DNA of 62,988 nucleotides, the filler included, from Atractiella rhizophila (Eukaryota): assembly GCA_021432655.1 (NCBI GenBank). It is 2 parts of one record of this genome, joined end to end, with 100 filler letters (N's around TTAATTAATTAA, not from the genome) between each part and the next. Parts side by side here need not be neighbours in the genome. Positions count along the whole stretch, not along the records: positions 31,993 to 62,988 come from MU271311.1; 1 more part is not named here. The stretch is one strand, 5' to 3'. Positions 31,893 to 60,555 of this stretch are shown piece after piece (position 1 is the first letter of the stretch; the number at the start of each line of letters is the position of its first letter). Both the position numbers and the translations under genes were made by a program. The notes under the pieces are model-generated. The model worked only from the letters and a program-made list of their open reading frames with translations, did no database searches and had not been told where the DNA came from.

Positions 31893-31992
31893 NNNNNNNN
31901 NNNNNNNNNNNNNNNNNNNNNNNNNNNNNNNNNNNNTTAATTAATTAANNNNNNNNNNNNNNNNNNNNNNNNNNNNNNNNNNNNNNNNNNNN
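31893..31992. other. Assembly gap: 44 N + TTAATTAATTAA spacer + 44 N
   Basis: Exactly 100 nt with a symmetric linker that has stops in all six frames, so artificial. Confidence 0.95.
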
Positions 31993-32461
31993 AGGGAATA
32001 GGTAGCAACATAGGACGCTTTTTAAGTAGCACGCACGCCTTCGCATTCGGCCCAACCGCATCTTTCCCCTTACGTATTCGCCCGATCTTTTCCTCCTGTA
32101 AGGGTAAGGGTAAGGGTACGGGTACGGGTACGGGTACATTCCTCTGTAACACAAGCAGTAATGTCCACGTCTTCTATCTCGACGGCCTCGAACTCTGCGC
32201 TAGCTTTAACGTCCTAGTTCGTCACTACGTCGACCTCGTGGCAAGTAACGAGCGTTGGCGAGGACTAACTTAGCGAGTTTAAGGTATCCTAGTTTGGGGC
32301 TCCCTGGATGTGGTGTAATGTTGTTTTGGTGTAGTAAAGGGTGAACTTTCGTATTCCTTCTGCTGCTTGGTAAGAGAAAGTCAACGTAGTAGAGGTAAAG
32401 GGAGGAGTGTAAAAGGTAGAGGGTTGGAACTACGGGATCTCTGACGACGTATCCGTAAGGT
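31993..32461. other. PEX5 N-terminal coding segment written in reverse order without complementation
   Basis: Read right to left uncomplemented it is open, contains a 63-nt GT..AG intron (32369-32307) and ends ..GAT AAG GGA, in frame with AAG GGA AAG ATG at 32462. Confidence 0.9.
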
Positions 32462-33980
32462 AAGGGAAAGATGGTTGAACTGTCGGAAACAGATTGGGAG
32501 AATGAGTTCGCCAAGTTTCAGGAAGAGGTCAAGACGGAACAACAGCAACCTTTACAACAGCCTGAGCAATGGCATACTGCCGAGGAACTCGTTAATCTTT
32601 CTAAGCTTGAGGTTCGTCTTTCTACCGGTGGTAGTTTGGGATATTTAGACACATACTGACTGAGCGATCGATGTGGCATAGGAACCTGGCGCAGATCCCG
32701 AAATTGAGAAGACCTGGAACGACATCCAAAGCATGTTACGGCAGGATGACAGTAATCTTGCAGAGTGGGAAAAAACATACGGCTCACAATTTGCAGATCA
32801 TTTCAACCTCAACGACTCCGATCACACATTTGGTCCCATCTCTGGCGACGCTCTCATCACACTCTTGCAGACAAATGTCTCGAAATCGTACCCCTACTCT
32901 CCAGCGGAACAGTTCAAAGACTCTGTGGATCCATATCTTGAAGCTGTGCGCATGATGGACGAAGGAAAACCGCTCCGCGAGGTCGCCGCAGCGTTGGAGG
33001 AAGCTTGTCGGAGAGATGAAGAGAGAGGGGAAGCCTGGGAGCTGTTAGGGAGGGTATGGGCGATGGACGAGAAAGAAACGCTGGCGATCAACGCGTTTGA
33101 ACGTGCCGTCCTTCTCAACAAACACAACGCCTGGATCGACCTTGCAATTTCCTATGTCAACGAAGGAGCGGATTCGAAATCTGTTGCTGCCTTGGAGAAG
33201 TGGCTGTCGCTAACATACCCCGATATCGCGGCCAATTTCAGGAAGGAAGATTTCGATGCGTCCAATCCATGGGCTGCCCAGGATAAGTTGAGCGAACTGT
33301 ACATTGAAGCTGCCAGACGAGGAGGGGCTGCTGGAACGATGGACAAACTGGTACAAGTTGGGTTAGGAGTTCTTTTTTACTCCAACAGCGATTATCAGAA
33401 GGCGAAGGATTGTTTTGAGGCTGCGTTGGCCGTGGACACACAGGTTTGTCTTTCTCACTTGTTATTTTCGACGTGCTAAAGGGAACGTAGGATTACGCTT
33501 TATGGAATCGGATGGGAGCGACGTTGGCAAATGGTGGGGAACCCGAACTAGCCATCGATGCCTATAGGAAAGCGCTAGAGCTTCGGCCAACATTCACTCG
33601 TGCAATCTGTGCGCACATTCTCATTATTCGCCCTGCTTAATCCTGACTTCAACGTAGACAACCTTGGCGTCTCATGTCTCAATATCAATTGTCCTCATGA
33701 GGCGGCCGAACATCTTCTCGCAGCATTGGAACTACAAAAATCAGATGTTGCCAACTCTGATGTCCTCAAAGGAAAAGGAAGTGAACTCCTGCAAATCGGC
33801 GATGGGAGTGAAAATCTTTGGGCAACCCTCAGAAAAGCCTTTCTCTGCATGGTTCGTCCCATTCGTAAGGCACGGCTGAACGACAATTGACGGGATTATT
33901 AGGGACGACATGATCTCGCAGATCGGGCACAGGTTGGAGGTGATATTGGTTCGTTCAGGAAGGATGGATTCGAATTCTGA
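32462..33980 (+). CDS. PEX5: Peroxisomal targeting signal 1 receptor Pex5 (5' part disrupted by the gap and reversed segment)
   Basis: WENEF WxxxF motif; TPR motifs [46 protein letters not shown] and [12 protein letters not shown]-terminal FRKDGFEF*. Confidence 0.92.
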
Positions 33981-34795
33981 ACCTTGTGTGCTTCTTTCAC
34001 GTAGTAAGGTCTTCTTTTTCCTCCTTTATTACAGGCGAAGAGACTTACGAGTCCCGTTTGGAAACAGGATATCATTGTTTAAACCGTCTGCTGTAGGAAA
34101 ACGACACGGAAAAGATCACTTGTGACACAGGTCTCGCTCTCTGCCCTGTTAACCTCTCATGCTCGAGCAATTCTAAGCGGCCAAAGTCTTTCACCTACAG
34201 CTGCTCTTTCGGTACCTAGTGGCCCTTCCCAACATTGAACTGAGGACCTATTAAATTCGCAAACTTCTCTAAAACACTTTCACCAGAGAGGCCATCGGAA
34301 AGAGATGGAAATCGGTGGTCAGGTAAGGGCCGCTTTATTAACTCACACCCTTCATAAAATCCTCCCATATCAAGGATCGACAGAGTCCAATGTTGCAGCT
34401 TGAAGAAGGAAGGAGCATGGCCAGGTCAAATTTGCCGATGATGATATCCATATTGCACCAGCGGCAAATCCATTCCAGATTCCCACCTCCGGTTTTTACA
34501 GAGTTCGAAATATGTGCTCAACATGTTGACTTTCAGCAGCAGGCATCCATGTGATGTGAAGCAGTAAAAATTGTGGCTAAGGGCAATGTCTCTCAGTGAT
34601 GATGAACGCAACCGAGTTATAGTTAGCTATGTATGTGGTTAGTAGAAATCGACAAAGTAGTCGCACATATTATTTTCGGGAGGTGAATTGCCTTGGCAAT
34701 CAGACGGAGATGGAGATGGGAGTGATGGCGGGGTAGGGAAGGAGTTGAGTACTGCACCGAACGAAGCAGAAACAGATAGAAAAGTAATGTACTGA

Positions 34796-60336: not shown

Positions 60337-60555
60337 NNNNNNNNNNNNNNNNNNNNNNNNNNNNNNNNNNNNNNNNNNNNNNNNNNNNNNNNNNNNNNNN
60401 NNNNNNNNNNNNNNNNNNNNNNNNNNNNNNNNNNNNNNNNNNNNNNNNNNNNNNNNNNNNNNNNNNNNNNNNNNNNNNNNNNNNNNNNNNNNNNNNNNNN
60501 NNNNNNNNNNNNNNNNNNNNNNNNNNNNNNNNNNNNNNNNNNNNNNNNNNNNNNN
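60337..60555. other. Assembly gap (N run)
   Basis: Run of Ns. Confidence 0.98.

Follow-up and report, generated by a model that had tools for sequence, protein, structure and literature searches.

A block of PEX5 sequence at a contig start of the Atractiella rhizophila assembly, almost certainly stored in mirrored order through a software error

A block of 469 nt at positions 31993-32461 of the analysed stretch of Atractiella rhizophila DNA (62,988 nt, referred to below as the window) holds part of the gene for PEX5, the peroxisomal PTS1 import receptor, in an order that is reversed without being complemented. The block is almost certainly real PEX5 sequence that came to be stored in this way through a software error and that was already in this state in the public assembly. 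It was judged not to be a biological feature but a bookkeeping error in the deposited assembly, and the gene itself is an ordinary fungal PEX5, biologically nothing new. The true order of the block places 32461 farthest upstream and 31993 as the base adjoining 32462; neither strand of the deposit carries it in readable form, and its assignment is based on frame, homology, k-mers and the loose ends of contigs from public sequencing runs. A sequence-only reading made before this analysis had claimed an uncomplemented mirror image of PEX5 at these positions, and its coordinates, frame and 63-nt intron were confirmed in every detail checked.

The part of the gene that follows the block lies on the + strand in normal orientation. 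The first of these exons (32462-32611) carries a WxxxF motif and was defined by the run contigs and the gene model, and the next (32682-33443), identified by homology, Pfam and structures, contains the start of the TPR domain; between them lies a 70-nt GT..AG intron on the same strand (32612-32681). The gene model adds exons at 33491-33608, 33658-33851 and 33903-33980, which follow introns at 33444-33490, 33609-33657 and 33852-33902, respectively, the last exon ending in a TGA stop. Exon 32682-33443 matched 66 longer proteins, several of which carry the source name PTS1 receptor or peroxin-5; the best matches came from Pucciniomycotina with 39-44% identity; A. rhizophila is itself an Atractiellomycete within Pucciniomycotina. 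The whole downstream model of 433 aa aligned from about residue 209-220 of the homologues to their C-terminal ends with 45-48% identity, and Pfam TPR_2 and TPR_1 were detected in it above the cut-offs. Among solved structures the best match was 9sfw_B (E 2e-35), followed by 9fh0_G and 3r9a_B, and the top 15 were all PEX5 or PEX5-related chains. Judged by these sequence and structure matches, the downstream exons are PEX5. The WxxxF/Y motifs, which serve docking in the N-terminal half of PEX5, occur twice in the joined reading (WENEF and WEKTY), both in the normally oriented part, with none in the mirrored 135 residues.

The mirror block is flush with the start of its contig. Two N runs, at 31893-31936 and 31949-31992, flank TTAATTAATTAA, and these positions define an unstranded artificial linker of N44 + TTAATTAATTAA + N44 (31893-31992, 100 nt) between two contigs. 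The next contig begins at 31993, and the first base of the block is the first base after the linker, a site where software manipulates sequence. Exactly 100 nt is the conventional length for a gap of unknown size. The 44+12+44 layout looks like a 100-N gap with its centre overwritten by a six-frame stop string, or like a custom joiner of that length. A second gap in the window, at 60337-60555, is a plain run of 219 N without a TTAATTAATTAA core, a difference that suggests the use of two distinct joining steps.

In the deposited order the block codes sensibly on neither strand, as had been noticed before: each of the six ordinary frames contains several stops, and the longest open stretches are 92 codons (+) and 84 codons (-). 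The three reverse-complement frames gave a best PEX5 match of E 2.4, and an ordinary reverse-complement inversion of the block was rejected as it does not restore the gene. When the block was reversed without complementing, frame 1 contained one stop in 156 codons and ran up to the very base 31993, which keeps it in phase with codon 1 at 32462. The sole stop sits inside a 63-nt interval, GTTCGT..GTGTAG from right to left (32307-32369), predicted from the mirrored reading as a phase 1 intron; its GTTCGT donor is also used by two normally oriented introns of the same gene. On the two sides of the intron, mirrored exon pieces also running right to left were assigned from the mirrored reading and alignment. 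The piece at 32370-32461, in which 32461 is a partial codon, holds a conserved MRRELE-like stretch, and the piece at 31993-32306 includes a (Met-Gly)6 stretch and ends with ..DKG where it joins 32462, its last 30 letters being matched by contig loose ends as well. The length of the open frame was rejected as evidence for the mirror block, as 48 of the 5551 stop-to-stop stretches elsewhere in the window, in the two mirrored readings, also reached at least 108 codons. The significance of the block therefore rests on homology, k-mer directionality and the reads, open length alone being within chance.

To examine the homology, the block was translated in 4 orientations with 3 frames each, and the resulting 12 readings were compared with the 66 homologues by BLASTP, with neither a low-complexity filter nor a composition correction. 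Mirrored frame 1 gave 50 matches at E ≤ 10, the best of which (E 9e-7) covered residues 134-215 of P0027, a region directly upstream of the alignment of the downstream exons; each of the other 11 readings gave 1-14 matches at E ≤ 10, the best E among them all being 0.096. The search of the reversed string against PEX5 proteins, which the sequence-only reading had put forward as a check, thus agreed with its assignment. The joined reading was then aligned with 19 of the 66 homologues, chosen as full-length top matches. The mirrored part was collinear with the N-terminal region of these Pucciniomycotina PEX5 proteins, sharing with them an E-M-x-x-(V/M)-R-R-E-(M/L)-E stretch and a Gly-Met repeat, and the motif KGKG(K/R)xVEL was recreated across the junction at the position it has in the homologues. 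These results bore out both the PEX5 identity and the exact in-frame junction at 32462 that had been proposed. Across the 19 homologues, 11-41 of 108-128 aligned positions were identical in the mirrored part and 113-132 of 266-300 in the downstream part. As a stricter test, an N-terminus profile was built from the 32 of the 66 homologues in which more than 120 residues precede the VEL..WE motif, and was compared with 4118 open pieces from the 12 readings of the whole window. The mirrored pieces ranked 1 and 2 with weak scores (E 0.05 and 0.3).

A hexamer repeat, GGGTAA/GGGTAC, located at 32100-32137 becomes ATGGGN x6 when un-mirrored and corresponds to the (Met-Gly)6 stretch. P0019, P0020 and P0036 carry GMGMGM where it aligns, which shows conservation of this low-complexity stretch within the N-terminal half of PEX5. 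The mirrored reading starts about 25-35 residues after the start of the homologues, which show ..SEC..NPL.. within their first ~25 residues, and this Cys..NPL start lies outside the window's contig. The conserved Cys near the PEX5 N-terminus has a role in recycling by ubiquitination; it is missing from the contig, which says nothing of its absence from the organism. A search of the left contig end (30400-31892, 12 readings) for the 5' end of PEX5 gave a best E of 0.27 and no Cys..NPL peptide. Consequently, either the linker joins DNA that is not adjacent, or at least about 440 nt is missing between the contigs or a piece has been lost. The contig of the public runs X1 and X2 extends 437 nt beyond the block.

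The direction-sensitive composition of the block was inverted as well. The observed/expected ratio of TA, the unusual frequency of which had been pointed out before, was 1.35 in the block versus a window mean of 0.60 (sd 0.13), a value reached by 0 of 259 other 469-nt windows, and that of AT was 0.51 versus 0.98, the lowest among the 259 windows. The high TA and low AT are accounted for by the swap of TA and AT that is expected from mirror reversal, and the TG/GT and CA/AC ratios were likewise swapped. A 5-mer Markov model was trained on both strands of the window, and 300-nt windows were scored as read against reversed in a leave-one-out manner. The mean score was +7.1 (sd 4.7, n=412 windows), and the window 32101-32400 scored -19.3, the lowest of all, with -9.7 for 32251-32550. 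No other mirrored block was found in the window by this score, the next lowest 300-nt window (-4.1) being within the tail. The 150-nt sub-blocks of the mirror block scored -24.7, -37.3 and -23.3, all three below every one of the 824 null windows (minimum -13.7). Directionality was normal in each 150-nt flank scored, namely at the end of the left contig, directly after 32462 and on both sides of the gap 60337-60555. The sequence-only reading had suggested scanning other gap flanks of the assembly for the same effect; within the window, the flanks of the second gap gave no sign of it. The cumulative directionality score declines between 31993 and about 32450, levels off until about 32650 and climbs thereafter, which agrees with the boundary at 32461/32462 without resolving it, and the exact boundary comes from the frame and the reads. 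The forward-versus-reversed k-mer likelihood ratio picked out the block with no knowledge of the gene, so that errors of this class can be detected at little cost, and it could be used to screen the contig ends of whole assemblies for them.

The order of the letters in real molecules was examined in independent public runs. A word search with 31993-34000 listed 24 runs, four of which (X1-X4) were compared over 31993-33400. These four represent three samples from three studies, X1 and X2 being one sample; X1 and X2 are DNA, and X3 and X4 are spliced RNA. The remaining runs, X5 to X24, had small shares, and some of them are labelled root metatranscriptomes. All four runs contained one contig that starts to fit exactly at 32462 and is preceded by letters unlike the deposit, namely 906 letters in the 1875-nt contig of X1 and X2, 57 letters in the 542-nt contig of X3, and 471 letters in the 1067-nt contig of X4. 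Intron 32612-32681 was kept in the DNA contig of X1 and X2 and skipped at its GT..AG borders in the RNA-type contigs of X3 and X4. The 30-letter consensus of the loose end was identical in X1, X2 and X3 and was the exact reversal of 31993-32022 (30/30), and 28 of 30 letters matched this reversal in X4. The same 30 letters as such are absent from both strands of the window. In real molecules, as this directly demonstrates for 30 of the 469 letters, the base stored at 31993 adjoins 32462 and the order runs outwards; the other 439 letters of the block rest on frame, homology and composition. The proposal of a software or scaffolding artefact was therefore upheld by contigs of four runs that carry un-mirrored letters directly before 32462. 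The depth over 31993-32415 (nine bins) was 0 in all four runs, and that of the tenth bin was the depth of base 32462 alone. Zero depth over the block counts as no evidence, and the argument rests on the loose ends and the contig pieces.

Over 939 letters, runs X1-X3 show 7-8 differences from the window, which points to a close relative or a different haplotype as the origin of X1-X4; these are probably not the reads behind the assembly. The differences common to X1-X3 (and X4), at 32771, 32786, 32981, 33107, 33149, 33353 and 33365, all fall on third codon positions of PEX5 (7/7), and these seven reflect natural divergence between strains or haplotypes, about 0.75%, and not errors of sequencing. 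Of the read comparison across 32461/32462 that had been suggested, the un-mirrored order was thus obtained in four runs, which probably represent close relatives of the assembled isolate and not its source reads. X3 also contains one contig with a 21-letter loose end before 33314, which matches nothing in the stretch; its possible origins are an alternative end of the transcript, a chimeric contig and a different locus. An exact scan of metagenome contigs for the un-mirrored 30-mer returned 0 matches, and the 10 loci returned by a protein-guided scan for the un-mirrored sequence were all distant, matching partially at 21-60% identity. In a protein search of the 'near' length range, P0067 was the sole near-identical fragment found.

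P0067 is the public protein "TPR-like protein [Atractiella rhizophila]", encoded on a contig of 97,530 nt. Its sequence is 100% identical to the downstream model starting with ATG 32471, which lies 9 bases past the junction, and its length is 430 aa versus a median of 689 aa for the 66 homologues. Gene callers were unable to read the block, and the public model for this reason begins at the first in-frame ATG beyond it (32471). By comparison with the homologues, P0067 is without the N-terminal docking and recycling half of PEX5. The earlier statement that the block hides the PEX5 N-terminus from gene finders was confirmed by the model start at this ATG and went too far for the first ~25-35 residues, which are outside the contig. 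Two proteins named 'peroxin-5' by another source, P0068 and P0069, showed 46-48% identity and have 353 and 426 aa, respectively, versus the same median of 689; related genomes may thus contain truncated PEX5 models as well.

The error would have arisen at the 5' end of the contig, during assembly, contig extension, merging or post-processing. Either of two simple bugs would produce precisely this pattern. A minus-strand piece may have been complemented but not reversed, or its bases may have been handled like a quality string, which is reversed only. Otherwise, a leftward extension of the contig end, made base by base, may have been prepended in the order of discovery and not turned round. The choice between these two bugs is a matter of inference. 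Reversal applied to a minus-strand piece was also considered and rejected; it would yield the complement reading, at odds with the observation.

The time at which the reversal was introduced bears on whether the public record is at fault. The unusual linker of exactly 100 nt indicates some custom handling at this junction, and the reversal could accordingly have been added after deposition, by window preparation or concatenation or as a planted control, with the public record being correct. The public gene model argues against this, as P0067 begins with the first ATG that follows the block and is far shorter than the homologues, while a correct record would have permitted a longer 5'-partial PEX5 model. 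For this last reason the mirror block was very likely already in the public record and not added later, and a reversal after deposition is considered very unlikely.

The remaining explanations take the deposited order to be genuine DNA. It is next to impossible that the isolate truly carries 469 bp of PEX5 in mirrored order, which would need a novel chemistry of DNA rearrangement: the chemistry of replication and recombination, as far as known, yields inversions only as the reverse complement, and no DNA transaction is known to give a pure mirror reversal. The un-mirrored order in four runs of near-identical organisms and the position of the block, which abuts an artificial linker at the start of its contig, also speak against it, and a true mirror would destroy an essential gene that is otherwise intact and differs from its relatives at third codon positions in 7/7 cases. 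A chance resemblance to PEX5 of unrelated non-coding DNA would be helped by the commonness of long mirrored ORFs, by the low complexity of the N-terminal half of PEX5 and by the modest homology scores. Such a resemblance fails to account for the match of 30/30 letters to the loose ends of independent contigs, for the exact joining of the mirrored frame at 32462 or for the inverted directional k-mer statistics in 3/3 sub-blocks, and the reverse-complement and complement readings contain several stops and have no PEX5 match better than E 0.096. Chance and ordinary reverse-complement inversion are thus exceedingly improbable, both being refuted by the loose-end match to the reversed 31993-32022.

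As a storage error, the mirror block leaves the public assembly with a stretch that is unreadable to any aligner or gene finder and that conceals some 135 residues of PEX5. As a result, the PEX5 model on public record is shortened to 430 aa and bears just the name "TPR-like protein", and comparative studies could wrongly infer that the receptor of this lineage is without its N-terminal docking half. It is conceivable, if on balance rather doubtful, that further contig ends, of this assembly or of others from the same pipeline, were mirrored by this bug and that genes there were silently truncated. The value of the case lies in database hygiene and in a worked example of a k-mer directionality screen, its biological interest being low.

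The linker is similar to a six-frame stop separator, likewise constructed around TTAATTAATTAA, that is used for concatenating contigs in order that no genes are called across the joins (10.1101/2023.02.08.527609), in that a TTAATTAATTAA core with N on both sides is placed between contigs. It differs from the linker quoted in that source, which is a 43-mer with extra start sites, whereas the linker of the window is N44+12+N44, or 100 nt (10.1101/2023.02.08.527609). Among the literature matches listed, the TTAATTAATTAA core string also co-occurs with 'contigs' elsewhere. Compared with PEX5 of the Pucciniomycotina type, the downstream TPR part is alike (45-48% identity); as deposited, the N-terminal region is unreadable, and the first ~25-35 residues are absent from the contig. 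Literature matching by exact phrases found nothing on mirrored blocks in deposited assemblies, which is weak evidence of absence. Wrongly oriented entries in sequence databases are a known counterpart, and the rRNA aligners ARB and SINA test 'reversed' and 'complemented' orientations because such entries exist. The mirror block is like these in being a bookkeeping slip that makes real sequence unreadable to standard tools, but it differs from them in being an internal block of 469 nt, located at a contig end in a genome scaffold and seamlessly joined to correct sequence.
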